Positions 1,107 through 24,601 of a DNA stretch of 64,000 bases are shown one piece after another. Position numbers and translations under genes: made by a program. Origin of the DNA: a virus. The stretch spans positions 1-64,000 of IMG/VR virus record IMGVR_UViG_3300009158_000046. The stretch is one strand, 5' to 3'. The notes under the pieces were generated by a model. It was not told the DNA's origin. It saw only the letters and a program-made list of their open reading frames with translations, and did no database searches. The stretch's first letter is position 1. Every line of letters starts with the position of its first letter.

Positions 1107-1181
1107 GGTGCCTCCAAAAAGAAGAGGGTGCCGACCGCAGCGGCACTACGGTCGACACCCTCGACTACCCACGGAAGTGGA

Positions 1182-1862
1182 TTAGGAACGCAGCGTCTCG
1201 AAGCCGATGACGCCCCAGTTGTTGGAGCCCTTCTGCTTCGGGATGTGCGAGAGACGAACCGGCACGATCCCCGCCGGGCCGAACTCCTTGAACGCCGCCT
1301 TCAGCCAGTCCATGCACAGCGCATAGCCGGTGTAGGGGGTCGTGTAGCCAAGCTTCGAGCCAGCCTCGACAACGCGCTTGGACTTCTTCAGATCGACATC
1401 TGAAATCAGCTCCATGACCAGCTCGACGCTGTCGTAGGAGCCCTTGCACATCGGATCGATGGACTGTGCGCGAGCGATGCACTCGTGCCAGGACTGACCG
1501 GAACGAGCCTCGCGAACGCCGTCGATCGACTTCAGGTAGATCGTCTGCCCCGCCGAGGTGTAGCGGAGTGAGTAGGGAAATTTCAGATCAGCCAACGCGA
1601 TGCGGACGTCGATCGTCTCGATCACGTCCGGGGTCTTGTCGATGTGCATTCCCGAGTAGTCGACCTGGAGGTAGAGGTCGACCGACTGCGGAGCCGCCTC
1701 GACGGCATCAGCAAGCGTGCGAGCCCGACCGGGGGCGGCAACGGTGGGAAGAGAACCCGACGCAGTCCCGGACAGTGCCGGAGCGGGGGCAGCAGCGGCA
1801 GCAGCAGCGGCAGCCTGAGCAGCGGCAATGGCGGCGTCGATGGCAGAATTGGATGCAGACAT
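1182..1862 (-). CDS. Replication-module protein, possible ssDNA-binding protein
   Basis: 226 aa, Ala-rich N-terminus, beta-rich body, between helicase and exonuclease; function from position only. Confidence 0.45.
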   Translation of the reverse strand: MSASNSAIDAAIAAAQAAAAAAAAAPAPALSGTASGSLPTVAAPGRARTLADAVEAAPQSVDLYLQVDYSGMHIDKTPDVIETIDVRIALADLKFPYSLRYTSAGQTIYLKSIDGVREARSGQSWHECIARAQSIDPMCKGSYDSVELVMELISDVDLKKSKRVVEAGSKLGYTTPYTGYALCMDWLKAAFKEFGPAGIVPVRLSHIPKQKGSNNWGVIGFETLRS

Positions 1863-1958
1863 TTTTAGACTCCAAATGAGGATTGTGGATTGCCATGTAA
1901 GATTAATCCCCTATCCGTCTAAGGATAGAGGTTGAGAGACAAACTATTTAGGAGTTTG

Positions 1959-3338
1959 TCAGAAGCTGAATTCTACCCTGTCCGGATCGACCTTCTTGGC
2001 CTCTCGGGACTTCTTGGCGACGATGCGAGAGATGTGCTCATCGATCGTCTTGCGGTAGAGCATCGTGGTGATGCGAAGAGCAGTCGAACGCTTCTGGCGC
2101 ATGAAGCGCCGGTAGGCCTGAAGGAGGACCGTGTCGACGTAGTGCAGTGTCACAAAGACGACGTGCCCTACTTCCTGGTGCCCACAGAATTGCCAGTTGA
2201 AACCGGTGTCGGCGACTTCTGGTGAGCAGACGAGGATCTTGATGCGACCGGCTCGGAAGTCGGCGTCAATCCCGGCGCGCTCTTCCGGGTTCTCGCCGTT
2301 CATCAGCTTGGCCCTGCCCCCAAGGCTGGCGACCAGTGCCAGGATTTCGTGCTGCTGGGGCCGCATCGAGGAGAAGATGACCAGAGGTGTGTCGTTCTCG
2401 ATCGCATCGGTGATGTGGAATTCGAGACGCTCGATTTTTCCCGCCCGCTGGCCGGGGGACAGGATGTTGATTGGCGGGGCCTTCGGGTCGGTCAAATCGG
2501 GGAAGCAGTTGGGATGCTCCATGATCTGGCGAGCGCGGGTGAAAGCCACGCCGGGGTTCTTGCCCTCGATGAAGAAGCGCTCCAGCTCAAGCACCCCCTC
2601 CTCGTGGAACTTGTGATAGACGACCGCCTGTTCCGGCAGCAGGTCGATCCACTCGGTCTGCATGACCTTGGCCTCGGGGCCATGGATGTCAGTGAACCGT
2701 CGACGTCGACCGTGGCGGATGAAAATCTCCCCCAGGATCTGGTGATCTCGGTAGCCGGTGGTCTTCAGGGTGAAGGTGTCGACGACGTGATGGCACTGCT
2801 TGAAGCCCTCGTAGCTGCCGTAGTAGAGAGGTTCGATGACCTGGATGACCGGGAAGGCGGTATCCAGCTTGCCGTTGATGAGTGTGCCCGTCATCGGCAC
2901 AAACCACTCACCGCGCTTCTTCATGAAGTCCCACATCGCGATCGTTCGCTGGCTCTCATGTCCACCGAACGCCTTGTGGCTCTCGTCGATGTGCAGGGCC
3001 TTGACGGTGTCCGGCAGGTCCTTCCAGACCTTCACGAACCGGGTGAAGCCCATGATGTAGACCCGTGCTCCGGGCCGCACCTCGTTCTCATCGACGATGA
3101 TCACGTCGCCTTCAGACCACCCGCCGAAGCGCATGGCCTCTTCCAGGTTCTTCTGGCGTAGCGAGTTCGGCATCACCCAGACTGTCGCCACGCCGTGCGT
3201 GTCCCAGAGCCACCGCTGTAGGACGCAGACAACCGGGGTCTTGCCGGTTCCTGGATCTGAAAGGAACAGTCCTTTCTTGTTGACCATGAACCAGCCGAGA
3301 TCCTCGATCTGGTCAGGCCGGAGGGTGAATGCCTCCAT
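1959..3338 (-). CDS. SNF2-like superfamily 2 helicase
   Basis: Q motif LRPDQ, Walker A PGTGKT, DESH box, MTGT, TGFNWQ, QAYRR. Confidence 0.92.
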   Translation of the reverse strand: MEAFTLRPDQIEDLGWFMVNKKGLFLSDPGTGKTPVVCVLQRWLWDTHGVATVWVMPNSLRQKNLEEAMRFGGWSEGDVIIVDENEVRPGARVYIMGFTRFVKVWKDLPDTVKALHIDESHKAFGGHESQRTIAMWDFMKKRGEWFVPMTGTLINGKLDTAFPVIQVIEPLYYGSYEGFKQCHHVVDTFTLKTTGYRDHQILGEIFIRHGRRRRFTDIHGPEAKVMQTEWIDLLPEQAVVYHKFHEEGVLELERFFIEGKNPGVAFTRARQIMEHPNCFPDLTDPKAPPINILSPGQRAGKIERLEFHITDAIENDTPLVIFSSMRPQQHEILALVASLGGRAKLMNGENPEERAGIDADFRAGRIKILVCSPEVADTGFNWQFCGHQEVGHVVFVTLHYVDTVLLQAYRRFMRQKRSTALRITTMLYRKTIDEHISRIVAKKSREAKKVDPDRVEFSF

Positions 3339-3673
3339 CAGAAAGGTCCCACCACGGGGTACTTGCAGACGTGTCGAGATCCACCGACAAAATAGACCAG
3401 CCGGGTGTTCTGAAAGACGGCGTCGTAGCTGTTCAACATCAGTCCACCCATCGGGGTCCTTGCACGCAGGGACACGCAGACCGAAGTGGCTGGACGATCA
3501 TTCGCCCGGTCGGCAAAAGGCGCAGTGACACGCATGTCCTGCACCGACCGGGGGTCATGGAAATTCTCGTTGATGTAGGCCCGGATCTGGGACTTCCAGT
3601 TGGACGGAAGCTGCTGAGCCTGAACTGCTGTCGGAGTCAGCAGAAGGGTAGCCATAGCGACGACGAGCTTCAT
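3338..3673 (-). CDS. Small exported protein with signal peptide
   Basis: MKLVVAMATLLLTPTAVQA-QQ signal peptide; stop overlaps helicase ATG. Confidence 0.6.
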   Translation of the reverse strand: MKLVVAMATLLLTPTAVQAQQLPSNWKSQIRAYINENFHDPRSVQDMRVTAPFADRANDRPATSVCVSLRARTPMGGLMLNSYDAVFQNTRLVYFVGGSRHVCKYPVVGPF

Positions 3674-3824
3674 CTTGGAGTTCCTTCCACGTTGTGGCCC
3701 CGGCTGGGGTCCAGTTAGAACACCGACGCCCCAACCACCCCATGTGGCTGGGGTGGCGGGGATCGTTGCAGATGCAATGATCGAGGCGGCAGTCGCCGTA
3801 GTGATCGAGCAGGTAATCACTCAA
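3555..3824 (-). CDS. Small Cys/His-rich hypothetical protein
   Basis: HYGDC..DHCIC..C pattern; start coupled to upstream stop. Confidence 0.5.
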   Translation of the reverse strand: MSDYLLDHYGDCRLDHCICNDPRHPSHMGWLGRRCSNWTPAGATTWKELQDEARRRYGYPSADSDSSSGSAASVQLEVPDPGLHQREFP

Positions 3825-4129
3825 GGCGACCTGAACCCCATCTGGGTCATCCGAACCCGCGTAGCTTCGATCTGATGGACCAGTAGGTGGTGCTGACGCT
3901 CCTTGCGGATCCGGTATGAAAACAGGGCTTTCTGCTCATCCGCATAGGCAAACCGCCTACCGCGAGGGTCACTGAAGACGAACTTCTCTGCAAACCCAAC
4001 CCTGATCCAGACTCCGCACCGGGTGTGTCTGAGAACCGGATAGGAGATCAGCGTCACAATCGGGTTGGATCTATCGTAGCCAGTCCAGTCATCCACGTAG
4101 CGATAGTAGACCTCTTGGTTAGCTGACAT
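3821..4129 (-). CDS. Hypothetical phage protein
   Basis: ORF from MSANQEVYYRY, coupled with neighbours. Confidence 0.7.
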   Translation of the reverse strand: MSANQEVYYRYVDDWTGYDRSNPIVTLISYPVLRHTRCGVWIRVGFAEKFVFSDPRGRRFAYADEQKALFSYRIRKERQHHLLVHQIEATRVRMTQMGFRSP

Positions 4130-4307
4130 CGTAGATCCCGGCCTCGACGCCCGTGACGTAGTTCTTGGCGGTCTCGGGAGCAACGCCGAAACGCTGGCCG
4201 ATCTCCTTGTAGGTGCGACCCTCTCGGCGCAGCTTCAGCAGTCGACGGATCTGGATCTTGTCCAGCTTGAGCTTGTGACCCGGCTTTCCGGGGTGGGAGT
4301 CGGACAT
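4119..4307 (-). CDS. Small helix-turn-helix DNA-binding protein
   Basis: LRREGRTYKEIGQRFGVAPETAKNY HTH pattern. Confidence 0.8.
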   Translation of the reverse strand: MSDSHPGKPGHKLKLDKIQIRRLLKLRREGRTYKEIGQRFGVAPETAKNYVTGVEAGIYDVS

Positions 4308-4308
4308 G

Positions 4309-4503
4309 TCAACGTTCCTGCCAAAGCACGTAGGCGGTCATCACGACAACGACCAAAAGAAACATCACGTAGGCGATGTTCATCGAATAGCCGAAGAACC
4401 AGGAGGCAGCCGCCACTGGCAGGCTAACCACCAAACCTGCAAAGCATCCCATGCCGAGAGCGAGAGGATATTTGAGGCCGGAGAAATCAGGCACTCCCAT
4501 CAC
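4309..4503 (-). CDS. Small two-TM membrane protein
   Basis: Two hydrophobic segments in 64 aa. Confidence 0.6.
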   Translation of the reverse strand: MMGVPDFSGLKYPLALGMGCFAGLVVSLPVAAASWFFGYSMNIAYVMFLLVVVVMTAYVLWQER

Positions 4504-5036
4504 TCACCCCCCTCTCGAACATGCTCGATCGCCTTGTTCGGATCGACCGTGCGCCAGTCCGGCCAATTCCGCTTCTCGTTGATCTCCTGCTTGGCGACCC
4601 AGGCGGTGATGATCTCCTCGGGAGAAAATCCCTCCTTCATCGCGCTCAGCAGGGCGATGGAGACGATGCTGGTCCACGGCTGCAGCTCAGTGCCGTCGCA
4701 CACGACGACATCGTCCAGGTTGGCCTCGATGTCGTGAACGAGGTCAATGTCCTGCGTGTCGGCAACCGAACCGGACAGGACGTTGAGAAAGCCGAGAGGC
4801 ACAAGCCCATGAGTCAGATCGCTGGAGATCTCCTCAGGCGTGAAACCGGCGCGCATTGCGCCGTCGCAGCCCAGGATCACGACGTCGATCCACTCCATGA
4901 GATCCTTGCCCTCGACGGCGCGGATCTCGGCCAGCTCCTTGCGGATGTGGTCGACGACGCCGGTCGTGCGCGGTCCTGGTCCGAAGGCAGAAAGCGAGAA
5001 GCACTTCTGACGATGAAGGTGTTCTGTGAGGTTCAA
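4500..5036 (-). CDS. dATP/dGTP pyrophosphohydrolase (DUF550-like) with internal duplication
   Basis: FS..AFGPG.RT.GVVDHIRKEL.EI, EWIDVVIL..DGA.R, KQEINEKRNWPDWR..DPNKAIEHVR; TTG start with GGAG RBS. Confidence 0.85.
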   Translation of the reverse strand: MNLTEHLHRQKCFSLSAFGPGPRTTGVVDHIRKELAEIRAVEGKDLMEWIDVVILGCDGAMRAGFTPEEISSDLTHGLVPLGFLNVLSGSVADTQDIDLVHDIEANLDDVVVCDGTELQPWTSIVSIALLSAMKEGFSPEEIITAWVAKQEINEKRNWPDWRTVDPNKAIEHVREGGE

Positions 5037-5605
5037 AGCAGGCTCCTGACGTAGGCGTCGAGCAAGGAAAGTCCGACGTTCGGCCATGGGATGGCGTCAG
5101 CGTCGAAGGGGGTGAAGGGCAACTCCTGAGCACCGGGGACGCGAAACCTCGAACAGAGGATCACCGTCCTGACTCTTGGAATGCTGAGCAGGCGCACGAT
5201 GTCGTCCACGTCCTTGAGGGCGTAGTCGACGATGATGAGAGGGGCGGCGTTGGTGCAGTTCAGGTCGCGGGTCAGACTCCTGATCGGGTCAGCCCATGGA
5301 ATGAAGAACACCGGCCGGTTTGGTGAGCAGATCTGGTGAGCGTACCGGAGAACCGAACTGGCCTCCGGTGGCACCCAGTAGGCACCGCCATCGAGGGCGG
5401 GACCTAGCTTGTGGACGATGGGATGATCGGGGATCTCTGCCCGATCTCCACCGCGAGCATAGTCGTGCGGACAGAACCGCGTGGTGACGACTTCGAACGG
5501 GCTCGCCAGCCGTTCCAGACCGGGGGTGAGGCAAACCCCACCCCCGGCCTCGTGAAGGAAGATCAGGTCATCCTGGCGATGGATGCCGTAGTGGTGGACG
5601 ATCAC
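5033..5605 (-). CDS. Hypothetical protein
   Basis: 190-aa ORF with 4-nt overlaps on both sides. Confidence 0.65.
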   Translation of the reverse strand: MIVHHYGIHRQDDLIFLHEAGGGVCLTPGLERLASPFEVVTTRFCPHDYARGGDRAEIPDHPIVHKLGPALDGGAYWVPPEASSVLRYAHQICSPNRPVFFIPWADPIRSLTRDLNCTNAAPLIIVDYALKDVDDIVRLLSIPRVRTVILCSRFRVPGAQELPFTPFDADAIPWPNVGLSLLDAYVRSLL

Positions 5606-5781
5606 TGCCGGTCCCCCTCGAAGAAATCGTCCTTTAAGGCTTCTTCCTCAGCACGAACTCGCAGCTCAGCAAGTGCATCCAGACCTCTGACCAACAGTCT
5701 AAAGTTCGGTATTGTGAGTTCTGCCTGTCGGACAAAGTGCTTCAGCTCATTGTCCGACAGTGTGTGCATTTGCTCAGTCAT
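5602..5781 (-). CDS. Hypothetical protein
   Basis: MTEQMHTL... coupled ORF. Confidence 0.6.
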   Translation of the reverse strand: MTEQMHTLSDNELKHFVRQAELTIPNFRLLVRGLDALAELRVRAEEEALKDDFFEGDRQ

Positions 5782-6140
5782 TATGCCGCCGCCTGTTTCT
5801 CTGTGACAGGCTTCACCGTAATGGCTGGCTTGGAGTTCTTCGACCAAACCTCCTTGAGAGATACGACGCCGATCTCGACCAACATCGTCTTGGTCTCCTC
5901 GGGCAGCGTGGCAAAGACCCCGGTGTTGAGAACCGGCTCCTCGCCCTTCAGCTCGGCGACCGAGCCGCGCTTGGTCTCGACCATGCCCTTGGCGGATGAG
6001 AAGCGAAGAGCCTTGTCGGCCTTGGTCGTGGCATCCCGCAGGACGTCCTTGAGGTGCTCGATGCGCTCAAGGGTCGGCGTGACCTCGACCTGGAGGTCAA
6101 TGATGGTGTCAGCTACGGTCTGAAGGTCGTTGATGCTCAT
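5781..6140 (-). CDS. Hypothetical protein
   Basis: AGGAG RBS, MSINDLQ..., typical codon usage. Confidence 0.75.
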   Translation of the reverse strand: MSINDLQTVADTIIDLQVEVTPTLERIEHLKDVLRDATTKADKALRFSSAKGMVETKRGSVAELKGEEPVLNTGVFATLPEETKTMLVEIGVVSLKEVWSKNSKPAITVKPVTEKQAAA

Positions 6141-6212
6141 TGTCGATCTCCTTGTTGTAGAAGCGCTGCAGTAGCGTTGTTGAGGCGGAAGGCTCTTTCT
6201 CAAAGGCGCATG

Positions 6213-6243
6213 AAAAAAGCCGACCTGTGAGGTCGGCTTTTTT
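6213..6243. terminator. Bidirectional intrinsic terminator downstream of the HTH regulator
   Basis: AAAAAAGCCGACC-tgtga-GGTCGGCTTTTTT. Confidence 0.9.
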
Positions 6244-6293
6244 GATATTCTGGGGCATCTGGTTATAGATGCGAATGTTCATGAAGTATTCGA

Positions 6294-6758
6294 CTAGGTC
6301 GACGACTGTACCTGTACTTTGCATGTGAGCGGCTTCGTCAGCTCCTCAAGCTTCATGTTGGTGATTTCTGCGATTTTCAGGAGTTGCGAGAGTGAGAAGT
6401 CGAACAAGCCATCCTCCATCTCGCCAACCCAGACGCGGTTGGCGAAGTCATGCTTGTCGGCAAACTCTCCGCGCTCCATCCCGAGAGTCACTCGGTGACG
6501 GAGAAGATGAACGCCCACCGCTCGGTGGACGGGAGACAGGGCCTTGCGGGCGGTGCGGGGGGTGTAACCACCAATGCGCTTTCCAGACCGTGGGATTTCA
6601 ATCCCACTCTCATTGGCGTACTGGATAGCCTCCTTGATGTACTCGGTGACGGAGGCTTGCGAGAGGCGGTGCGACAGCCGCTCGTAGATTTCGGGTCGGG
6701 TCAGGCGCTCTTCCAGGAAGAGCGCTCTCACCTGCAGCTTGAGAGTGTTCGTGGTCAT
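6294..6758 (-). CDS. Two-HTH transcription regulator (C-terminal XRE-like), candidate immunity repressor
   Basis: N-terminal LTRPEIYERL..SQASV; C-terminal RHRVTLGMERGEFA...EMEDG.FDFSLSQLLKIAEIT XRE pattern; stand-alone gene between attP and terminator. Confidence 0.7.
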   Translation of the reverse strand: MTTNTLKLQVRALFLEERLTRPEIYERLSHRLSQASVTEYIKEAIQYANESGIEIPRSGKRIGGYTPRTARKALSPVHRAVGVHLLRHRVTLGMERGEFADKHDFANRVWVGEMEDGLFDFSLSQLLKIAEITNMKLEELTKPLTCKVQVQSST

Positions 6759-6844
6759 TGAACCCCCGAGAAAAGTGGGGGGGCGTATGGGAGGAACAAA
6801 ACAGCACCCAGTGCCCCAAGGATGCACAGTGGGCTCTGGGAAAA

Positions 6845-6860
6845 GTTGAAAGCTTTCAAC
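6845..6860. promoter_or_regulatory. Palindrome copy 1, GTTGAAAGCTTTCAAC
   Basis: Perfect 16-bp palindrome upstream of the regulator. Confidence 0.85.
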
Positions 6861-6885
6861 GACTTGGGGGGAGCTGGGGTGGTAA

Positions 6886-6924
6886 TCCCAAAACTTCCGC
6901 GCTACCAGACTGCGCTATACCCCG
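6886..6924 (-). other. attP core region: 5' half of tRNA-Pro(TGG), not a complete tRNA
   Basis: CGGGGTATAGCGCAGTCTGGTAGCGCGGAAGTTTTGGG = acceptor 5' strand, D arm, anticodon 5' stem and TGG loop; pairing breaks after the loop; 60 nt downstream of the integrase. Confidence 0.85.
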
Positions 6925-6984
6925 TTTATACCCAAGCCGTTGAATTTGCAACCTATTCCCAAAGCCTTTGATTGAAGTCAGACT

Positions 6985-8046
6985 CTACAACTTACGCGAC
7001 TGGGGGAGAAGTGAGTGGGGACTGTGTTTCCCCAACAACTCCCTGAGAGTTTGCACGGATCCGGCGGCGTACAGCTCGTGGGCCTCGACCGTGGTGTGAC
7101 CCATGATCGACATCCGGTCCTCTCGGGACATCCCGAGCTGCCGGACCCACGACGCAAACGTATGACGCAGATCGTGAATTCTCGCTTTCGGCAACCCGGC
7201 TCTCTTCCGCAATACGGTCCAGCCTCGATAGATGGATACGTACCTTGTCCGTGTGCCGGGGTTGGTGAAGACGTACTCTGATAGTGGGTCACGGGCAATA
7301 CCTGCCAGTGTGTTCAGACTGTGTGTGGTGAGTGGGATCAGGCGGTCTCTTTTTGCCTTGTCCCGCTCCCGTGACAGCCTGATCGTACCCTTCTCCAAAT
7401 CGACCTCCGACCACATCAGGCCGAGGGCCTCTTCATGACGCATTCCGGTCTCCAAGATCAGCCGGATGTAGGCTGACCAGAAGCGACGGCCTTGCGCTGC
7501 GTCCAGCAGTCTCTGAACCTCATGAGGCTGTAGGAACCGGGCGTGATCCGAAGCTTTTCCTAGGCGCTTCTTGCTCACGAGCCGAACCGGGTTGTGGGTC
7601 GGGGCTCCCGGAAGTTCGTTCTCGACGGCAAATTCCAGCACGGCTGACAGGGCTGTCAGTTCATGGCGCACCTGGATGTCTGACGTCTGTGCCCTTCGGT
7701 CCTTCATATAGGTGCGGACCAGCTCCGGCGTGACAGCACTCAGCGGAATGTTGCCGAGGGTGTTCACGACGATCGCCATTTTGCGGGCGTACAATTTGGC
7801 CGTGCTGTCCTTGATGGTCAGCGACGGGTCTTGGAAGTAGTCATGGAGAGCCTGAATGAGGGTAAGGCTGTCGCGTCTGGTGGCTTCTCTTTCGAGTTCC
7901 TCTCGTCTGTGGTCTGCAACTTCGCGAGCGCGCTTGCGAAATGCTGGACTGGCGGGCACTCGTGTCGAGAAGCGATGAGTTTCTCCACCGACATCGAGTT
8001 CTGCATACCAGTACGGGCTTTCCGACCTTGTGAAGAGTTTGACCAT
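6985..8046 (-). CDS. int: Tyrosine integrase
   Basis: ETGMRHEEA (R), HDLRHTFAS (HxxR), IMGH, YA catalytic Tyr; N-terminal arm-binding-like domain. Confidence 0.96.
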   Translation of the reverse strand: MVKLFTRSESPYWYAELDVGGETHRFSTRVPASPAFRKRAREVADHRREELEREATRRDSLTLIQALHDYFQDPSLTIKDSTAKLYARKMAIVVNTLGNIPLSAVTPELVRTYMKDRRAQTSDIQVRHELTALSAVLEFAVENELPGAPTHNPVRLVSKKRLGKASDHARFLQPHEVQRLLDAAQGRRFWSAYIRLILETGMRHEEALGLMWSEVDLEKGTIRLSRERDKAKRDRLIPLTTHSLNTLAGIARDPLSEYVFTNPGTRTRYVSIYRGWTVLRKRAGLPKARIHDLRHTFASWVRQLGMSREDRMSIMGHTTVEAHELYAAGSVQTLRELLGKHSPHSLLPQSRKL

Positions 8047-8222
8047 CCCTTCTCTCTTTTTTGAGCAAGCCAGAGGCGAAAGGCCTCCTCCTCCCAGAGC
8101 CAGACGCCGTTAAGCTGAAAGGCTCCGGGAAGAAGACCGTGGCGAGCCCAGTAGTAGGCAACCCGCCTGGATACCCCTAGCCGTGGTATGATTTTCGAAA
8201 ACCTAACGTAGGTCTCCTGCAC
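7818..8222 (-). CDS. Excisionase-like wHTH protein overlapping the int 5' end
   Basis: RLGVSRRVAYYWARHGLLPGAFQLNGVWLW pattern; GGAGA RBS before GTG 8222. Confidence 0.7.
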   Translation of the reverse strand: MQETYVRFSKIIPRLGVSRRVAYYWARHGLLPGAFQLNGVWLWEEEAFRLWLAQKREKGWSNSSQGRKARTGMQNSMSVEKLIASRHECPPVQHFASALAKLQTTDERNSKEKPPDATALPSFRLSMTTSKTRR

Positions 8223-8268
8223 GTTTCTCCCCCGTGAAATTCTGAACAGTCTCGTACAATATCGTTCG

Positions 8269-8496
8269 TTAATCTGATTGCGACTCATTATTGAGTCTAA
8301 TTAGTTCTGATACAGAATATGGGATTTGATATTTATTTATTAATAGCAAGTTAACAGCAGTCTCTAGTCTTTTGATTGATTTTCCAAGCTCATGAAATTC
8401 GTCGGTTCTAAACCCCGCCAATAATTCAATGGCGAGGTCCTCACTCACGTCAGATAGGGCTTCAAGCAGCGGTTTGATGTCGGTACTCTCTGTCAT
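8269..8496 (-). CDS. Hypothetical protein (AT-rich)
   Basis: 75-aa ORF with GGAG RBS. Confidence 0.55.
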   Translation of the reverse strand: MTESTDIKPLLEALSDVSEDLAIELLAGFRTDEFHELGKSIKRLETAVNLLLINKYQIPYSVSELIRLNNESQSD

Positions 8497-9187
8497 GCGA
8501 AACTCCCTGAAGGCGTTTGTCTACGACCCCTTTTTGAGTCCCATGAGCCGGAAAAGCTATAATAGCGTCTCTGGTCCTGGGTTTGGTGCAAAGCTGGCAA
8601 TCAAGACACGTCAATCTAGGCACGTAAGTCTCAGGACAAATTGCAACCGGACGACCTGATGGAGTTCTCAACTTGAGAGATCCACCGAGACGCTGTCGAT
8701 ATTCAGACAGACTCTCCATTTTTAGTCTCTTGTATCGAGACTCAATGACCACCACTGTTGGCAAGCCAGTAGCGGCTAACTCGTCGGCCTCCTCCAGAGA
8801 GTCGGCCGACAAATTCACGTTGAACCCCAACTGCGACATCTCCCGAAGGGTGTCGAAGTCGCGATCATGGCTAAAGCAGATAACCGGCCTACCAGCGTTG
8901 GCCTTGGCCAGTTCCAGCTTGTCATTTCGGTTTGGGGGCAAGTCTCCGGCCTGTCCGTAGCGCCAGACGGTGCCACGGCGGAGAAGACGGATCTGGCGGA
9001 GCAGGGCTTTGAAATCGATACCGATTGTCCCCAAGCTCTGCCAGAGAATCCACAGGGGACCCGTCAAGGCATAACAACCTGCATCATACAGAGAACACTT
9101 GAGTGAGCAAGTGTCCCTGGAGGCTGTGACAACGGGCATTGGACCCAGCTTTTTGTTGCGAGTCATAGCTGTGAAATAGAAGCGCAT
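8462..9187 (-). CDS. Cys-rich phage protein, possible Fe-S/radical-SAM-like fold
   Basis: TCSLKCSLYDAGCYA, R...AGDL, VNLSAD, CP..TCLDCQLC..FPAHG. Confidence 0.6.
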   Translation of the reverse strand: MRFYFTAMTRNKKLGPMPVVTASRDTCSLKCSLYDAGCYALTGPLWILWQSLGTIGIDFKALLRQIRLLRRGTVWRYGQAGDLPPNRNDKLELAKANAGRPVICFSHDRDFDTLREMSQLGFNVNLSADSLEEADELAATGLPTVVVIESRYKRLKMESLSEYRQRLGGSLKLRTPSGRPVAICPETYVPRLTCLDCQLCTKPRTRDAIIAFPAHGTQKGVVDKRLQGVSHDREYRHQTAA

Positions 9188-9205
9188 TCGCAGGACTCCA
9201 GAATC

Positions 9206-9234
9206 AAAAAGGCCCGCCGTGAGGCGAGCCTTTT
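9206..9234. terminator. Intrinsic terminator
   Basis: AAAAAGGCCCGCC-gtga-GGCGAGCCTTTT. Confidence 0.8.
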
Positions 9235-9290
9235 GGGATTGATGTCGGGGGATTTAGGGTTAGCTAATCAGTAAAACTGACTGCTAGGGG

Positions 9291-9545
9291 TCAGTGGCAA
9301 TCGTCAATTTTCTTTCGAAGTTCCGATTTATCAGTCACGTTGAAATAGAACCAGTACGGTCGACTATTGCCTTGTTTGACTCTCTGCTTTGCATAATCGA
9401 GAGAGTTGAACGTGCTGCCGCCATCAGATCGCGCACCAATCTTGGAGATTGCGATAATTTCTGATGGGGTGAGGTAGCCGCCAAATTGGCGACCTTCCAT
9501 GTGGACGATTTTCTTGATCGTGGAAGGAGAGATCTGATTTGCCAT
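9291..9545 (-). CDS. Hypothetical protein
   Basis: 84-aa coupled ORF. Confidence 0.55.
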   Translation of the reverse strand: MANQISPSTIKKIVHMEGRQFGGYLTPSEIIAISKIGARSDGGSTFNSLDYAKQRVKQGNSRPYWFYFNVTDKSELRKKIDDCH

Positions 9546-9745
9546 CAGCCGTCTTCCGTCGCGGCGCTCTCACGGCAGTCCGGGCAGGTTTCCCAATCCC
9601 GTACTCCATGCTCGCAAGGTGCCATGCTGCGAAGCCATGACTGGCGCTGTGCTTCCCACATGGCCTGCTGCTGTTCCGGCGTCATGGCGTCGTAACGAGC
9701 TTGCGCGTCAGCAAAGGCGCGCTGCAGTTCATCGCGGTCTTTCAT
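9545..9745 (-). CDS. Small zinc-ribbon protein
   Basis: CEHG...CPDC. Confidence 0.65.
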   Translation of the reverse strand: MKDRDELQRAFADAQARYDAMTPEQQQAMWEAQRQSWLRSMAPCEHGVRDWETCPDCRESAATEDG

Positions 9746-9899
9746 CTGTGGGATGCTCCTGTGCGTGTACGGCCTTGACGTGCTGCTTCACGGCGATGCG
9801 ATCAGCGAACACCTTGTCGCAGTGCGGACAGCGGTGGGTTCTGAGAACGCGCCACCGCCAGCCGCCGTCAAACCAGACGGTTCTGGGCTTGGTGGTCAT
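9729..9899 (-). CDS. 56-aa classical C2H2 zinc-finger protein (absent from ORF track)
   Basis: MTTKPRTVWFDGGWRWRVLRTHRCPHCDKVFADRIAVKQHVKAVHAQEHPTDERPR; ATGA overlap with upstream stop. Confidence 0.75.
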   Translation of the reverse strand: MTTKPRTVWFDGGWRWRVLRTHRCPHCDKVFADRIAVKQHVKAVHAQEHPTDERPR

Positions 9900-10249
9900 G
9901 ATCGCGGCTCCGGCGGGTTGAGTGCGCGGATCATCTGCGGGTAAGGAACCGTTGGCGTTGCCACAAGCACTTCCCAGCCGGGTCCTTTCTGCGCTTGAAC
10001 GTTAACGGTCGGGGCTCTTTCTACGGCTTCCGCCGCCGCGTCCCGGCCTTCAATCCAGCCGTCACGACGGCCACGCCAATAAGCCTTCACACGCTGTTGC
10101 TCGCACAGCCCCCATTCCCGTTCGGCGGCGTCTGCACGGGCCTCCAGTTTAGCAATCCGAACGGCCTGCTGGTCGAGCAGGTCGGCGGCGGCGTCCATGC
10201 TGGGCGTCTGAAACGACCGCAACCACGTTGTCAGTTCCTCGCGCGTCAT
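9896..10249 (-). CDS. Hypothetical protein
   Basis: Coupled ORF. Confidence 0.65.
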   Translation of the reverse strand: MTREELTTWLRSFQTPSMDAAADLLDQQAVRIAKLEARADAAEREWGLCEQQRVKAYWRGRRDGWIEGRDAAAEAVERAPTVNVQAQKGPGWEVLVATPTVPYPQMIRALNPPEPRS

Positions 10250-10533
10250 GGCGTCGGCTCCTTGTCGATCAGGTTTTTGATCGGCCGAACGACCGCGTCC
10301 AAGATGAAAGAGATGTTCCAGGCTGCGCCGCTCGGGCCGTGGAAGTCGGCATGATACCGGATCGCCACTTCGGCTAACTTTGCCGCCTCCGTCAGGGCGG
10401 CGATGCGGGCGGCGTCCCGCTCGGCCTGGATGGTCTCGGCGATGAGAGCGCGCAGCTTATCGTAGCCCATGTCGATGGACGGGATCCCGACCGGCGGCAG
10501 GATCGTCAGTGCGACTTCCTCCGGCGTCTTCAT
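10246..10533 (-). CDS. Hypothetical protein
   Basis: Coupled ORF with GGAG RBS. Confidence 0.65.
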   Translation of the reverse strand: MKTPEEVALTILPPVGIPSIDMGYDKLRALIAETIQAERDAARIAALTEAAKLAEVAIRYHADFHGPSGAAWNISFILDAVVRPIKNLIDKEPTP

Positions 10534-10588
10534 GCTCCATCCTCCTGTGGCTCATCCATGTGAAGGATCTCGTCTGCGGCCCGGTCCA

Positions 10589-10867
10589 TCACTCGCCCTC
10601 CACTCGCAACCACGGGAATGCTTCGCGAACACGGGACTCTGTAGACTCGTCCCAGAACCCAGAGACAAAAATGGATCGGGCCTTTGCCCATTCCTCCCGC
10701 GTCAGCACGACCGTGGGAGGTGGGCGGTGGCGCTCATAGGCCTTGATGGCGGCGTCGGCGGCGCGAAGGACAGTCGGAACGTCGCGCAACACGTCAGCGT
10801 CTAGGCCCCACCCTTCGCAAATAGCCTGCGCCATGACCTGCCGGAGATCGTCTGTCGGTTCGGTCAT
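10589..10867 (-). CDS. Hypothetical protein
   Basis: MTEPTDDLRQ... coupled ORF. Confidence 0.65.
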   Translation of the reverse strand: MTEPTDDLRQVMAQAICEGWGLDADVLRDVPTVLRAADAAIKAYERHRPPPTVVLTREEWAKARSIFVSGFWDESTESRVREAFPWLRVEGE

Positions 10868-11172
10868 GGTGACGGCTCCCCTCCAAACCCCAACTGCTTT
10901 TCGGCTTCCCACGCTCGACGCAAAGCCGATCCGTTCACGCCTTTGAAAACGGGACCTTCCATCGTCACGTCGATGGCCACGGCTTCTCGGTACAAGCAGA
11001 GCAGTCGAAACAAGCTGGCGACACGAATGTCGCCAGCGAGGGTCTCGGGGTGATTGCGGTAGGCCGCGATGGCGGAGTCAGCAAAGTCGATCCAGTTGCG
11101 CCCCGGAGAAGTCATGATCGCATTGGCGACAAAGCGTCGAAGGTCTTCAGACTCGGGAGCATCAGCCCTCAT
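10864..11172 (-). CDS. Hypothetical protein
   Basis: MRADAPESEDL..., GGAGG RBS. Confidence 0.65.
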   Translation of the reverse strand: MRADAPESEDLRRFVANAIMTSPGRNWIDFADSAIAAYRNHPETLAGDIRVASLFRLLCLYREAVAIDVTMEGPVFKGVNGSALRRAWEAEKQLGFGGEPSP

Positions 11173-11581
11173 CAAAGCCTCCAACCTTCTTGGTGATCAG
11201 CGTCACCCGGTCGAACTGGACGTCGACAGCGATAATGGCCACCTCATCGACGCAGCCGTAGCTTGAGACCCACAAGGGAGTTCCCTCATCCATGAGGAAA
11301 TCTCCGCCTTTGTAGCCCTCCAAAGTGGAGTTCAGGATTGTCCGGAGGCAGTCCAGGAACGGGGCCACGGTAGTCGCGAACCCGCGCTCGAAAGCCAGAT
11401 CAGAGTAGTAGCCACGATAGCTGTGAGGCCGAAATGGTGCCGTTCCGTCATCGAAAACCACATCGGCATTCGGAAATGCGATTTCCAGTTTGGCGATGAG
11501 CTGTCCAAGCGTCACATGATAGTTCTGACGGGTGACGCGAGACGTAGCGCTCATCGCATCAAGTAATTTCTGCATGTCCAT
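11162..11581 (-). CDS. Conserved phage hypothetical protein
   Basis: TLGQLI..L, PHSYRGYYSDLAF, GYKGGDFLM..TPLWV motif set recognised from phage proteins. Confidence 0.8.
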   Translation of the reverse strand: MDMQKLLDAMSATSRVTRQNYHVTLGQLIAKLEIAFPNADVVFDDGTAPFRPHSYRGYYSDLAFERGFATTVAPFLDCLRTILNSTLEGYKGGDFLMDEGTPLWVSSYGCVDEVAIIAVDVQFDRVTLITKKVGGFDEG

Positions 11582-11596
11582 GATGATCCCCCTTTG

Positions 11597-11628
11597 AAAA
11601 AGAAAGGGCCGGTCTTTCGACCGGCCCT
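11597..11628 (-). terminator. Intrinsic terminator
   Basis: AGGGCCGGTC-tttc-GACCGGCCCT with U-tract on the minus strand. Confidence 0.75.
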
Positions 11629-11632
11629 GGCT

Positions 11633-11998
11633 TCAGGCCAGCTTGACGAGAAGGGTACTTCCTTCGATCCGGGCTTCCGGGGTCCAGGTCTTCATCGGGT
11701 CGGTGACACCGGGAGGAACGAGGACGCTGGAGGTGTACTTGCCGACGCCGTTGGACTGGACACGCAGGCGAGCCCGGTGCTTTTCGTCCACAGGCGACAG
11801 GGCGTACCAACCCTGGTCGTCGCCGTCTCCGCGAGCCACTGAAAGGCGGTCATCCGCCTTCCAGCCGAGAGCCTGGACGAGGCTGGGCGGCATCTTCAGC
11901 CGCCCGGCAATGCCGTCCGGGACGCGAACCACGGCGAACCGCAGCTCGGTCACAAACGTCCACTGCTTGACCTCACGTTCAATCAACTGAAAGCCCAT
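11633..11998 (-). CDS. Hypothetical protein
   Basis: MGFQLIERE..., AGGAG RBS. Confidence 0.7.
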   Translation of the reverse strand: MGFQLIEREVKQWTFVTELRFAVVRVPDGIAGRLKMPPSLVQALGWKADDRLSVARGDGDDQGWYALSPVDEKHRARLRVQSNGVGKYTSSVLVPPGVTDPMKTWTPEARIEGSTLLVKLA

Positions 11999-12014
11999 CT
12001 TGTATTCTCCTGTG

Positions 12015-12851
12015 TCATTCGAAGTCGTCGTAGTCGTCCGACCCAACATCAACCGTGCCGGTGTCAATGACATCGGCATCGGGGCTGTCGTAAGTCGCCA
12101 CAGTATTCTGATGCTTGCGGACGAACTCATCAATGTACGACTTGGAAATCTCCTCCAGGACTTCGTACTTGCAGACCCGCATCTTTGAGCCGTCGTAGTC
12201 GGTCGGAACCGAAACGACGTCCTCGGGCCAGAAAGCGCAGAGAACGACACGGCGATCGTCCTGCCACAGCCCGAAATTCGGGATGTAGCGATAGGCCCCG
12301 AGATGGAGACCGTGGCTGCAGGTGTTGTCGGGATTGTCGTCCACGTCGCCGCGATCGATCTCGACAACCTTGCCGATCGAGTTGTCGAACTTGCCGCTAT
12401 AGACGTCGGTGAAGTCGTCCCGCACGACCTTGAGAGCGGTCATGCGCCCGTCTGCCAGCCACGGCAGGTCATTGACCTGAGCGAAGATGGGGAAACGGGT
12501 CCGAGCCGAATTGGTCGGATTGCGGTAGAGGCTCTCCAGCACGTTGAGCAGCGGCTGGAACGGCACATTCTCGGCCTGCAGCTTGAGCAGCTTCTCGGTG
12601 AAGTAGTTGTCGATCCGGTTGCCCTTGTAGAGCACCGAGTCGTAGGTCACCTCGAACCGGCCCTGGCTGACAGTCCGCAGAGCCTCGCCGCTGTCGCACC
12701 AGCCGATGAGCTGGTCGACGTCGGCGGTGGAGGTGAGGAGGCGCTCACGCGCCGCCTCGAAGTTGGAGTTGTCCCTGCCGATGTGGTGGGGCTGGCCCTT
12801 GGCGAAGAACGTGATGGAATGGTCAGCGATCGTGAACGGGATGTTCGTCAT
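12015..12851 (-). CDS. rIIB: RIIB-like protein
   Basis: DDNPDNTCSHGLH, VVSVPTDY..SKMRVCKYEVL; follows rIIA. Confidence 0.88.
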   Translation of the reverse strand: MTNIPFTIADHSITFFAKGQPHHIGRDNSNFEAARERLLTSTADVDQLIGWCDSGEALRTVSQGRFEVTYDSVLYKGNRIDNYFTEKLLKLQAENVPFQPLLNVLESLYRNPTNSARTRFPIFAQVNDLPWLADGRMTALKVVRDDFTDVYSGKFDNSIGKVVEIDRGDVDDNPDNTCSHGLHLGAYRYIPNFGLWQDDRRVVLCAFWPEDVVSVPTDYDGSKMRVCKYEVLEEISKSYIDEFVRKHQNTVATYDSPDADVIDTGTVDVGSDDYDDFE

Positions 12852-12876
12852 GGTAGGTCTCCTGTTTTGACGGAAG

Positions 12877-12892
12877 GATGAAAGGTTTCAAC
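12877..12892. promoter_or_regulatory. Palindrome copy 2 (one mismatch), GATGAAAGGTTTCAAC
   Basis: Overlaps the rIIA stop codon. Confidence 0.65.
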
Positions 12893-15005
12893 CGTGCTCA
12901 GCGGCACGAGCTTCAAGATCGAGATAGTAATCAAGATCCTGGACGTTCGAGTTATAGTACCCCAACTCCTGAACGAAGCGATGCAGGAGCTTGTACTTCT
13001 CCCTGAGGAGTTCGTACTCACCACCCAACTCCTGTGCGGGGCTGGGCGTCTCCACCAACTGACGAGCGTCGGCAGTGAATTTGTAGTAGTAGTTGTAGAG
13101 ATTGCGCTCGTCAGACTTGTCTTCGCCAGACTTGTGGAGCATCACCTTGGTGAGAAAGGCTGCGAAGTCGATAGGCTTCCTGCGAACCAACAGGTTAGCC
13201 TTCATCTTGAGGTTCTCGACACTACGGTCGAGAGCGTCGGCCTGCCGCTTACCCCTTGCGACAGCATCGAAGTCCATCTTGCTTTCGACGATCTGCTTGA
13301 GCCAGGGGCCAAACATCGTCCACTTTTGGAACTTCGGGGTCTCATCGAAAATGATGACGTTCGGGACTTCGTCGACGTACCCTGTCAGCTTGAGCAGCCG
13401 CAGGATCTCGCCGACGTGGCCCCGCATCATGTTGGTGTTGTAGGTGTGGTTAGGATCGGTGAGGTAGTTCCGGTTCCGCATCTGGGTGCGGCTGCCGACC
13501 TCCCGGTCGACGACGTAGATGCCGCCTTCCTTGAGAGAGATGGAGACGTCATTGATCTCGCCGTTGGCGAAGATCGACTTCTTCTTGACGGTCAGGCGAG
13601 AACGACCCTCACGGGCGATCTTGGGCAGCTTGACCTTGCCGAGATCGAACACCGCCGGGTCGGTGCGGGTCAGTCCAAAGCGACCGAGGACCGCGTCGAC
13701 GTGGTCGTTGTCCTTGCCGATGCAGCGCAGCCAAAGCACCCGGCCGGTCAGACGGGGCTTGAGGGCCGTGATACGTTCGAACGAGCGACTGGTTGTGGTC
13801 TGAATGATGACGCTGCGAATGCCAGCGCCATAGGAGCCGATGCTCCAGCTCCAATTTGCCTTGCCACGACCCTCTGAGAAGCGGTCGAAGACGGGGCTGT
13901 CCTGATCGCTGTTGAAGACGCAGGCGCTGACCTCGTCATGGTTGGACTTGAAGGTGCTGACGATCGGCGTCTTGCCCCTGTAGAGCACCTTGCTCTCCAG
14001 GTGCTTCGCAGCGCCACTCGGCATCGTGTTGGTTCGGTCGTGGAAGAGGACGCAGGCCTCGAAGAAGTTCTCGGCCGTGTCGATGTGGTCCTGCAGCTCG
14101 ACGACGTAGGCCAGCTCGAAGGCCTTGATCGTCTCCATCAGCGTCTGCTTGGTGGTGGCGTCGTAGCCAAGCTCCTCGTTCGACGTGGTGGGCGTGAGGC
14201 TGCCCAGAGGCACGTCGAACAGGATCGGCACGCGCCGCCATGGCCAGTCGGGCATGTCGAGAGCCGCCATGTCGACCGGGAACAGGATGCAGCCCATCCG
14301 AACCCTGGGACCGCTGAACGGCACAGTGTCCTTCTGGTACTGGACCCAGCCGTCGCCGGAAGCGGCGATGACCTCGCTACCGAAGTCGATCTCCGGATAA
14401 ATCTTCGGCCGGGGGCGAAAGCCCCAATAGGCAGACTGGGCTTCCCACCGGACCTTGTCGATGTCCTCGCGCCGGATCGGGAACGACACCTCCAAGCCGG
14501 TCGGCTCGTCGGTCGGGCTCTCGTCGATCAGGTCCCAGCCGGGCTTGCCGTCTGGCTGGATCGCCATGGTGTAGGTCCGCACCATGCCGTCGAAGAACGA
14601 GCGCACGGTGAAGGAGCCAGCGCCCTGGCCGAGCTGGGTGCCGTTGATCAGGTAGCCGTAGGGGCTCTTGGAGCCGAGGCCACGGTGACCCTGGCTGTCG
14701 GCGTCGTTGTCCTTGGTCGAGTTGCCGAACTCGCAGAAGACGTTGACGACGTCGTCGTGGCTGAGGCCGGGGCCGCAGTCACGGATCCGGAACACCGGCT
14801 TGAAGATGGTGGGCAGGAAGACCTCGAAGCTGGTCTTGGTGTCCCAGGCGTTGGACCCCAGCTCCTGAAGGAAGTATTTGATCTTGTTCTTCGCAATGCC
14901 GGACATGAGAGTGTAGTACATGACCGGAGTTGCACGAATGCCAGCCGTGCCGTGGCTGATCGTCTCAGACGTGATCTTGGTGTAGGTTCCGTAATTCGGT
15001 ATCAT
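12888..15005 (-). CDS. rIIA: RIIA-like protein with N-terminal GHKL ATPase domain
   Basis: ELGSNAWD, IRDCGPGLS, STKD, GLGSKSP, TGLEVSFPI. Confidence 0.88.
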   Translation of the reverse strand: MIPNYGTYTKITSETISHGTAGIRATPVMYYTLMSGIAKNKIKYFLQELGSNAWDTKTSFEVFLPTIFKPVFRIRDCGPGLSHDDVVNVFCEFGNSTKDNDADSQGHRGLGSKSPYGYLINGTQLGQGAGSFTVRSFFDGMVRTYTMAIQPDGKPGWDLIDESPTDEPTGLEVSFPIRREDIDKVRWEAQSAYWGFRPRPKIYPEIDFGSEVIAASGDGWVQYQKDTVPFSGPRVRMGCILFPVDMAALDMPDWPWRRVPILFDVPLGSLTPTTSNEELGYDATTKQTLMETIKAFELAYVVELQDHIDTAENFFEACVLFHDRTNTMPSGAAKHLESKVLYRGKTPIVSTFKSNHDEVSACVFNSDQDSPVFDRFSEGRGKANWSWSIGSYGAGIRSVIIQTTTSRSFERITALKPRLTGRVLWLRCIGKDNDHVDAVLGRFGLTRTDPAVFDLGKVKLPKIAREGRSRLTVKKKSIFANGEINDVSISLKEGGIYVVDREVGSRTQMRNRNYLTDPNHTYNTNMMRGHVGEILRLLKLTGYVDEVPNVIIFDETPKFQKWTMFGPWLKQIVESKMDFDAVARGKRQADALDRSVENLKMKANLLVRRKPIDFAAFLTKVMLHKSGEDKSDERNLYNYYYKFTADARQLVETPSPAQELGGEYELLREKYKLLHRFVQELGYYNSNVQDLDYYLDLEARAAEHG

Positions 15006-15022
15006 TTGTTGCTCCAAAAATG

Positions 15023-15050
15023 AAAAGGCCCGCCAATGGCGAGCCTTTTT
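15023..15050. terminator. Intrinsic terminator with the same stem as 9206-9234
   Basis: AAAAGGCCCGCC-aat-GGCGAGCCTTTTT. Confidence 0.8.
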
Positions 15051-15074
15051 CGATAAAGACGAGGATGGTTAGTG

Positions 15075-15090
15075 GTTGAAAGCTTTCAAC
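15075..15090. promoter_or_regulatory. Palindrome copy 3, GTTGAAAGCTTTCAAC
   Basis: Abuts the stop codon at 15091. Confidence 0.85.
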
Positions 15091-15435
15091 CTACTCGGAG
15101 TTGCTGATCGCGTTCGAAGCCTCCTGGAAGATCACGAAGTGCTTGGAGCGGACGTAGTGGACGAACCGCGTTTCCCAGTCCTTGGAGGCAGTCCTACGCA
15201 ACTCTCCACGCTTGGCCTGCACGAGCTGCAGTGCGAGCTTCTTCATCCGCATCGCCATGCGGGCCTTGCGGAGCCAGACAGCGTCGTCCTGACGTTCGGG
15301 GTCGATGAGGTGGCCCTCGATGACGCCGAGTGCCTGCGTGAGCACGAGCTGGGCGTTGTGGCAGTCGTCGAGAGTCTTGAGATCGTCGATGACCCAATCG
15401 GGGCCGTCGATCTCGATGACAGGTACGGGCTTCAT
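15091..15435 (-). CDS. Hypothetical helical protein
   Basis: 114-aa coupled ORF. Confidence 0.7.
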   Translation of the reverse strand: MKPVPVIEIDGPDWVIDDLKTLDDCHNAQLVLTQALGVIEGHLIDPERQDDAVWLRKARMAMRMKKLALQLVQAKRGELRRTASKDWETRFVHYVRSKHFVIFQEASNAISNSE

Positions 15436-24471: not shown

Positions 24472-24513
24472 ACGAACTACGTTGTGGGCGTATATCCGAA
24501 GCTATACTTCGAT

Positions 24514-24591: not shown

Positions 24592-24601
24592 CACGCCCGT
24601 G

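Follow-up and report, generated by a model that had tools for sequence, protein, structure and literature searches.

The window analysed here is a 64,000-nucleotide stretch of viral DNA, bases 1-64000 of the 72,977-base IMG/VR record IMGVR_UViG_3300009158_000046, in which a phage attachment site (attP) lies between an integrase gene (int) and the gene of a putative regulator. This attP almost certainly has a reversed orientation, carrying the 5' part of a host tRNA-Pro gene instead of the usual 3' part. The best overall explanation of the locus, to which we give a probability of about 0.75, is that integration through such a site would create two junctions at which the upstream transcription signals of the rebuilt tRNA gene and of the regulator are exchanged. 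The layout points to an exchange of signals more than to an on-switch. Since the record has direct terminal repeats and a completeness estimate of 100%, the finding concerns a free phage genome and not a prophage. The phage is predicted to be temperate, with Beijerinckiaceae-type alphaproteobacteria as hosts.

The 5' half of tRNA-Pro at attP and in integrated relatives

The attP core occupies positions 6886-6924 (minus strand), where 39 bases reproduce tRNA-Pro(TGG) without a mismatch, starting at base 1 and stopping where the anticodon loop ends. An earlier reading of this DNA from its letters alone (the sequence-only reading) had claimed such a 5' half at 6924 to 6886, ending in the anticodon loop, and the BLAST search of 6886-6924 against tRNA genes that it had proposed as a check bears this out. 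Indeed, the 39-mer is identical (39/39) in 11 stretches of the genome collection, all 11 being 5' ends of tRNA-Pro(tgg) genes called by ARAGORN. Nine of these are labelled Methylocella, Methylocapsa, Beijerinckia or 'Beijerinckiaceae'; the other two are a Methylobacteriaceae metagenome-assembled genome (MAG) and a MAG labelled Spirochaetota. The latter (L008, contig CAVZVX010000126.1) shows a tRNA-Pro / tRNA-Arg(TCT) locus and an upstream promoter pattern as in Beijerinckiaceae, and its label is possibly a binning error.

In the alignment, identity opens exactly at tRNA base 1 and closes after the final anticodon-loop base, and the phage sequence past the core is unrelated to the tRNA 3' half, the part that marks a classical site. 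ARAGORN called no tRNA gene in the window. With the Rfam tRNA model, the only match in the whole 72,977-base record was a sub-threshold one of 13.2 bits at 6837-6924, and an Rfam search of 6200-7100 at E values up to 10 returned terminator-like partial matches only, tRNA not being among them. Because ARAGORN is blank and the Rfam match stays below threshold, 6886-6924 is a half gene and not a gene.

Integrated relatives were sought in 401 genomes sampled from the family of the Methylocella match and in a separate order-level sample, also of 401 genomes. Homologues of int (37-52% identity) occur in five of the family genomes, while the order-level sample returned one of 401, again G010; the search for regulator homologues found them in 4 of 401 genomes, G227 among them. 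In two of the five int genomes, G010 (50% identity) and G144 (41%), a full tRNA-Pro(tgg) gene stands directly 3' of int on the same strand, and in each of them the tRNA 5' part occurs once more, in a copy not called as a tRNA by ARAGORN. Including G227, three integrated elements have the tRNA 5' part as a direct repeat at their two ends; the two junctions lie on a single 4.3-Mb contig in G010 and on two contigs each in G144 and G227.

The junctions are best seen in G010, where the second 5' copy lies ~23.7 kb upstream of the full tRNA gene and the direct repeat runs from tRNA base 1 to ~base 40. At the host promoter side (attL) of this element, the displaced half is preceded by a host-type promoter-like sequence, CTTGTG-N17-GGTAGC, as in uninfected relatives, and is followed by the phage-derived P' arm and then by a homologue of the regulator (36% identity). 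The open reading frames (ORFs) of the G010 element have counterparts in the window to either side of attP, among the ORFs of 360-6827 and of 6985-15932. G227 provides a third attL with a regulator homologue, and its other junction (attR), with a full tRNA called by ARAGORN, is found on another contig; no int of this clade was found in its 2.8-Mb assembly, in which the attR contig ends 600 nt upstream of the tRNA. A second viral contig from a free phage, L036 (46% identity in int), is arranged alike: after the int stop codon come 11 nt and then the tRNA-Pro 5' half, which a P' arm of 130 nt separates from a regulator homologue. Overall, the regulator faces the side of the displaced host promoter in four of the five elements that carry a tRNA-Pro 5' half.

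The G010 element (loci L031 and L032, contig C6, ~835,100-858,900) measures 23.7 kb, against 73 kb for the phage, and has perfect 40-base flanking repeats. Its ORFs match window ORFs of the early region only (360-15932 and 23147-23653), and it appears to be a shortened prophage or a satellite-like element.

Collectively, these integrated relatives display the geometry that had been claimed earlier: in G010 and G227 the displaced half with the host tRNA promoter faces the regulator, and in G010 and G144 the intact tRNA comes behind int. The crossover lies at or just past the anticodon loop, in line with the claimed position. The sequence-only reading had also called for prophages on which attL and attR could be mapped, and junctions with tRNA 5' repeats were obtained in G010, G144 and G227 but none of the window phage itself, for which we infer the integration geometry.

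Other homologues of int behave differently with respect to the site. Those of G126 (52% identity) and G324 (45%; this locus is also viral record L035) are not at tRNA-Pro. In G275 a 37% homologue (L023, G275:C63) faces the 3' end of tRNA-Gly(ccc), which is consistent with the usual orientation. The alignment of this G275 int is lost after the HxxR region and its C-terminal Tyr segment is missing; it is probably a decayed integrase.

The attP form of the window phage was also found outside the record. In all four public runs concerned, contigs cross the window attP unbroken; two of these runs come from other studies (one with 1 difference, the other with 54 differences over 1,591 bases), and the remaining two are possibly the source of the record itself. 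Furthermore, run X2 yields a 761-base contig in which the core, with one mismatch, stands between flanks that are not phage DNA; one flank continues as a tRNA 3' half, and the contig looks like an unoccupied tRNA-Pro site. No lysogen of the exact window phage appears among the run contigs, as would suit a reading in which the tRNA half is not an attachment site at all, being instead a phage tRNA gene in decay or a remnant left by chance or by assembly. We consider this very improbable, since the match is 39/39, extends from tRNA base 1 to the anticodon loop and lies directly behind int, three integrated relatives have this block as their flanking direct repeats, the second free phage contig has it too, and independent assemblies from other studies cross the site.

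INPHARED phages gave no blastn match to window 5000-12000, the 39-mer has 0 matches in the viral contig collection (from which the window's own record is possibly excluded), and a scan of that collection with int as a single protein returned no relative. A metagenome scan with the int alignment kept 80 loci, all distant and mostly of 23-36% identity, one reaching 48% over 61 residues.

Upstream transcription signals of the regulator and of the rebuilt tRNA

In the model that we favour, int would recombine at or just past the anticodon loop of the host tRNA-Pro(UGG) gene, with the phage contributing tRNA bases 1-38 and not the 3' part. At attR, the excisionase-like gene (xis) and int, a 60-nt spacer, the phage 5' half and the host 3' half would be joined into an intact tRNA gene severed from its own promoter. 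At attL, the host promoter and leader would be followed by the displaced host 5' half, the 127-nt P' arm, the regulator and its terminator. The minus-strand order int, tRNA half, palindrome, regulator and terminator had been noticed before, and all five elements are indeed where they had been placed.

A single leftward transcription unit can be proposed between two intrinsic terminators. The first, at 9206-9234 (minus strand; -24.4 kcal/mol, z score -4.4, with 0 of 200 shuffles as good), bounds the unit upstream, just 5' of the start codon of a DUF7227 gene. The second, at 6213-6243 (minus strand; -20.5 kcal/mol, z -4.8, again with 0 of 200 shuffles as good), closes it behind the regulator, where a strong terminator had been claimed; terminator parts of Rfam leader models match the same positions. 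Integration would split this unit at attP. Before integration the regulator could be read as the last gene behind int; afterwards it would be read from the host tRNA-Pro promoter or from a P' arm promoter that escaped recognition, and transcription of the rebuilt tRNA would have to come from the phage side, either reading on from xis-int or starting at a promoter in or near the int 3' end. No canonical terminator was found between core and regulator in any of the four regulator-bearing P' arms, nor between int and the core in the window. Since the regulator follows int on the same strand and no real terminator separates the two, it should be readable before integration, which argues against a gene that is off until integration. 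Integration would cut the regulator from its upstream unit, and it would then have to use the host tRNA promoter or a P' arm promoter.

The regulator (6294-6758, minus strand, 154 aa) is preceded by a GGGGG Shine-Dalgarno-like run directly 5' of its ATG and is predicted to combine an N-terminal three-helix domain resembling sigma-70 region 4 or LuxR with a C-terminal helix-turn-helix (HTH) of the XRE/Cro-C1 type. On its own, the protein matched neither Pfam (at an E value of 0.01 or better) nor PHROG, and a word-index protein search returned the query alone. A profile built from it and two homologues retrieved 230 proteins at E <=0.001, and of 40 aligned members of this family, 22 carry HTH_3 and five Sigma70_r4_2. 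The family profile matches SinR at 2.2e-5 over residues 79-148 and gives weak GerE/DesR-type matches over the N-terminal part. The AlphaFold model (pLDDT 80) shows a three-helix N-terminal and a five-helix C-terminal domain, and the closest structures returned by Foldseek, at E values of 4e-3 or weaker, were C.AhdI, C.BclI, SinR and the N-terminal domain of lambda cI; the five C-terminal helices of the model match C.AhdI, SinR and lambda cI with target-normalised TM scores of ~0.6-0.76. The earlier description as a two-HTH regulator is a fair one. No divergent ORF adjoins the gene, the neighbouring genes being on the same strand.

The sequence-only reading had gone further and proposed that the regulator is an immunity repressor, silent in the free phage and switched on only once the host tRNA promoter is placed upstream. 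The confirmed geometry of the relatives, the failure to recognise a promoter in the P' arm and the predicted DNA-binding nature of the protein, with its XRE-type HTH, are in keeping with such a switch, and a different mechanism of integration-dependent immunity exists in mycobacteriophages (PMC3694055). Against this claim, the regulator of the free phage stands 3' of xis-int with only a weak, AT-rich 6-bp hairpin between them, so that read-through before integration is expected. Nor does the layout seem to depend on a tRNA promoter: the regulator is kept in G324, whose element is at a non-tRNA site, and in G306, which has neither int nor an att site at this place. Moreover, no divergent cro-like gene and no enriched operator motif were found near the regulator. 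Altogether, we regard a strict switch of this kind as improbable.

The G306 locus (L124, G306:C76) deserves attention in this respect. It contains DUF7227, the regulator and a homologue of window ORF 5033-5605, with no xis-int-attP segment between them, and it seems that the integration module behaves as an insertable cassette. The G306 regulator overlaps the DUF7227 stop codon (ATGA), which leaves no intergenic space for a promoter; it would be read from upstream, which favours dependence of the regulator on upstream transcription.

The P' arm of the window measures 127 nt from the end of the core to the regulator ATG and is composed of 25 C-rich bases, the palindrome and 86 further bases. 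An earlier estimate had put the host promoter ~130 nt upstream of the regulator. This figure fits the 127 nt from junction to start codon; the promoter itself would be roughly 190-230 nt upstream, because the 39-nt half and host leaders of 25-45 nt add to the 127 nt.

The palindrome that had been claimed in this arm is present at 6845-6860 as a perfect 16-mer, GTTGAAAGCTTTCAAC, and it is a member of a phage-wide GTTGAA-N4/5-TTCAAC family rather than a feature peculiar to attP. In the window it has 9 matches at <=3 mismatches, against 0.26 expected, and the whole record holds 11 exact GTTGAA-N4/5-TTCAAC sites plus 2 near-matches (window 6845, 12877, 15075, 19291, 21438, 22990, 24514, 24542, 24571, 25101, 26555 and 49360; record 72337). 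Most of these sites lie between 6.8 and 26.6 kb in short gaps just 5' of minus-strand start codons, some of them abutting the ATG, and three are arranged in tandem at 24514-24586 with a spacing of 28-29 bp. The tandem sites fall at the end of a region of ~950 bases without a convincing ORF (window 23654-24600), a candidate for the main control region or origin. The arms are kept and the centre is variable, as expected for the target of a dimeric DNA-binding protein or for an RNA hairpin. The family looks like the site set of one phage regulator, a 'stoperator-like' set, or like an RNA hairpin operator. As RNA, the attP palindrome would form a 6-bp hairpin, and the stretch folds at -9.8 kcal/mol with a z of -1.0. 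Its position between the half tRNA and the regulator suggests that either the passage or the initiation of transcription could be regulated there. Neither the L036 record nor G010 contains the GTTGAA...TTCAAC palindrome, and a search of them for a comparable repeated one found none.

Several observations weigh against the exchange of signals or limit its reach. First, the E. coli-type promoter scan was blank in the att regions of the window, L036, G010, G144 and G227; such blanks carry little weight, because evident host tRNA promoters were missed too. Second, the contigs of the four runs show the attP form only, with neither attL nor attR of the window phage. Third, G144 has no regulator within 1.9 kb of its attL. 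ORFs lie ~1.1-1.5 kb from this attL (L034, G144:C16, positions 1-1146); they look like IS66-family accessory proteins, which may explain the missing regulator. Fourth, G324 keeps int and the regulator at opposite ends of its prophage, ~78 kb apart, at a non-tRNA site. Fifth, only one of four P arms, the int-side flanks of the core, is host-like (that of G144), the best z for the window P arm being 0.9. The remaining points concern the P' arm itself. Its first 70 nt are C-rich and G-poor in three of the four regulator-bearing elements (C/G counts of 27/10 in the window, 27/6 and 20/8), beginning with 6861-6885 (minus strand), where the TTACC right after the core is common to the attL of G010 and G144. 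This C-rich start could be a Rho loading site that ends untranslated transcripts from the tRNA promoter, and the palindrome next to it could be a protein roadblock or an operator. Further on, a 27-nt block at 6793-6819 (minus strand), with a weak 5-bp hairpin at 6803-6815, was found by eye to be common to the P' arms of the window and G010. Inverted repeats, also recognised by eye, stand 5' of every regulator homologue at a conserved 40-70 nt before the start codon (window, G010, L036, G227 and G324). The block and the repeats could point to a promoter belonging to the regulator itself.

Among candidate signals that were rejected, a TTGTTC-like -35 element of the P' arms stands at varying distances (14-16 nt, by eye) from any -10-like element that the arms share. 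A hairpin followed by T8 after the half tRNA of G144, considered as a terminator, has a z of only -0.8 against shuffles and was not flagged by the scan; it is a weak hint only.

These features could be combined into an insulated layout with the same attP, in which an autoregulated promoter of the regulator lies in the P' arm, host transcripts are stopped by Rho or by a palindrome-bound protein, and integration has no regulatory meaning, the int-attP-regulator order being simply the genome architecture of the group. It would fit the C-rich start of three of the four P' arms, the membership of the palindrome in a family of at least 11 sites, the block and inverted repeats 5' of the start codon, and the situation in G324, where the regulator end of the prophage adjoins a chemotaxis-receptor-like host gene and no tRNA (the G324 junctions share no 11-mer, which makes the att core unmappable). 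It would also agree with an argument, made in PMC3603311, that transcriptional spill-over into prophages is selected against. However, no P' arm has a recognisable promoter or a canonical terminator, and the regulator of G306, overlapping the upstream stop codon, has no room for a promoter. Furthermore, the 27-nt block could contain Int arm-type sites, an operator or a promoter element, the conserved blocks may equally be Int arm-type sites, and the TGTGC/GCACA half-site, tried as an operator motif, is not enriched (72 window sites against ~125 expected). We therefore hold insulation to be a real possibility, on which we would nevertheless not bet.

Under the exchange of signals that we prefer, the question becomes how much the host promoter matters to the regulator. 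That it contributes materially to regulator expression in lysogens seems to us to have somewhat less than an even chance. A more ambitious proposal is a swap working in both directions: the host tRNA-Pro promoter, presumably under growth-rate and stringent-response control, would maintain the regulator, and the host's single tRNA-Pro(UGG) gene would ride on the xis-int transcript, with the palindrome or other P' sites acting as an autoregulatory brake. Both parts of this proposal are tentative, and we judge them rather unlikely. If it were true, lysogeny maintenance would be tied to the host growth state, and the host's need for the tRNA would keep the int operon expressed.

The other side of the exchange concerns the rebuilt tRNA. 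In five of five genomes, a search with a 21-mer pattern turned up a single full tRNA-Pro(TGG) gene each, a more diverged second copy being possible. In G010 the sole full gene found by this pattern lies 36 nt behind int and ~23.7 kb from its native promoter, and since there is one full gene per genome, the G010 lysogen appears to live with its only such gene behind int. The distance from the int stop codon to tRNA base 1 is 60 nt in the window, 36 nt in G010 and 11 nt in L036, and the int ORF of G144 ends 5 nt before the tRNA. The P arm of G144 contains a diverged version of the sequence upstream of the host gene, with CTTGCC-N16-CATATA in it (z 19 by local alignment), and this shows one way in which elements could supply a tRNA promoter. 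A resemblance of the window P arm to the upstream region of the G324 tRNA failed the shuffle test (z 0.2). The rebuilt tRNA would thus owe its transcription to a promoter, captured or embedded, or be co-transcribed with int. As to the earlier suggestion that the tRNA becomes tied to the prophage, it stands for transcription only, because precise excision restores the host gene.

The integrase and its proposed leftward unit

The proposed unit has the order DUF7227-orf75-xis-int-attP-regulator, and the DUF7227, orf75, xis-like and int genes overlap or abut. The DUF7227 gene, the first of the unit, lies at 8462-9187 (minus strand) and matches Pfam PF23872 at 1e-56. The xis-like ORF, of the HTH_17 type, lies at 8047-8288 (minus strand); its Pfam match (PF12728, 8.4e-6) is just under the cut-off, and it matches phrog_66, annotated as 'excisionase and transcriptional regulator', at 1.5e-7. 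Its open frame runs on to 7818 (minus strand), ~230 nt into int in another frame, and the xis-like homologue of G010 likewise overlaps its int, by ~160 nt.

The int gene itself (6985-8046, minus strand) encodes a tyrosine integrase of 353 aa that matches PF00589 at 1.7e-22 (residues 171-328) and phrog_1 at 1.7e-56. When aligned with its relatives, it shows the motifs GMR at 201-203, KAKR from 230, HDLRH at 291-295 and HELY at 323-326, to which the catalytic roles R...K...HxxR...H...Y can be assigned. Between the int stop codon and tRNA base 1 lies the 60-nt P-arm spacer (6925-6984, minus strand), which contains no terminator-like site and no E. coli-type promoter and which after integration would sit immediately 5' of the rebuilt tRNA.

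Terminators recur through the leftward early region, as they do in operons controlled by antitermination. Two strong ones, at 15023-15049 and 9206-9234, have nearly identical stems, and others lie at 11605-11628, 11014-11037, 6213-6243 and 1124-1162. The region also contains rIIA-like and rIIB-like genes (12015-15017, minus strand; phrog_612 at 6e-67 and phrog_609 at 4e-56) just upstream of the lysogeny module, and such genes are present in the 23.7-kb G010 element as well.

Relation to known systems and meaning

Classical attP sites in tRNA genes are reportedly located at anticodon-loop, T-loop or 3'-end sublocations, as Williams 2002 (NAR 30:866) is said to have set out. Like the sites of the window phage group, such a site has a tyrosine integrase adjoining a block of tRNA identity, can have its crossover in the anticodon loop and leaves an intact tRNA at one junction, whereas in the window the identity extends from the crossover back to tRNA base 1 and not to the 3' end. 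Integration into a tRNA gene in the reversed orientation has reportedly been described by Zhao and Williams 2002 (J Bacteriol 184:859), for what is said to be a Mesorhizobium element. In such cases, as in the window phage, the element recombines with and carries the 5' part, and the native promoter is separated from the rebuilt gene. The window group differs in offering a complete free phage genome with its attP, a second free contig and three integrated relatives, as well as a crossover in the anticodon loop and a regulator that faces the displaced promoter in four of five elements.

The norm for tRNA-targeting elements was correctly given in the sequence-only reading: PMC1635311 describes a 5' end that is bacterial and a 3' end that comes from the phage, and PMC6563490 calls integration into the 5' part 'considerably less frequent' than into the 3' part. 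Archaeal cases of reversed orientation are listed in Krupovic et al. 2019. Reversed 5'-part integration is thus already in print, and rare.

Three other systems bear on the present one. In the mycobacteriophages BPs, Brujita and Charlie (Broussard and Hatfull; PMC3694055), attP lies inside the repressor gene, integration removes a C-terminal degradation tag, and the cassette has a divergent cro and no xis. There, as in the window, int, attP and a repressor-like gene are adjacent and integration alters what is joined to that gene. On the other hand, the core of the window is 127 nt 5' of the regulator ATG, so that the protein is unchanged and only the upstream DNA is exchanged, a xis-like ORF is present and there is no divergent gene. 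In the tRNA-dependent lysogeny of Guerrero-Bustamante and Hatfull 2024 (PMC10865867), recombination at a ~10-bp core destroys the host tRNA gene and the phage has a whole tRNA gene. In both cases the lysogen relies on phage-supplied DNA for an essential host tRNA function; in the window, however, the tRNA would be put together again with the help of 39 bases supplied by the phage, which lacks a complete tRNA. Finally, the discussion of Panis et al. 2010 (PMC2951348) raises the idea that an element might gain from a growth-rate-regulated tRNA promoter. That idea concerns elements 3' of an intact tRNA, whereas here a promoter together with a truncated half would be aimed at a specific regulator. 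A literature search found no description of a host tRNA promoter driving a prophage regulator, a weak negative since most subscription journals were outside its coverage.

Known by now from free as well as integrated forms, the anatomy of the window attP is real and rare, and it belongs to a little-known class of reversed orientation, to which this group adds, in four of its five tRNA-Pro elements, a regulator facing the displaced host promoter. A prophage finder that relies on duplicated 3' ends of tRNA genes alone will draw the borders of these elements in the wrong place. Integration in the reversed orientation poses two problems from which the usual orientation is free, namely how the rebuilt tRNA is transcribed and what becomes of a strong host promoter aimed into the prophage, and the window phage group is a clean natural system for both, with two free attP forms, three integrated ones, unoccupied sites and one relative (G144) bearing an apparent copy of the host tRNA promoter. 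Should the regulator indeed be driven by the host promoter, the group would provide a second type of lysogeny control that depends on integration, mechanistically apart from the BPs type, and a direct link from host growth control to prophage maintenance.

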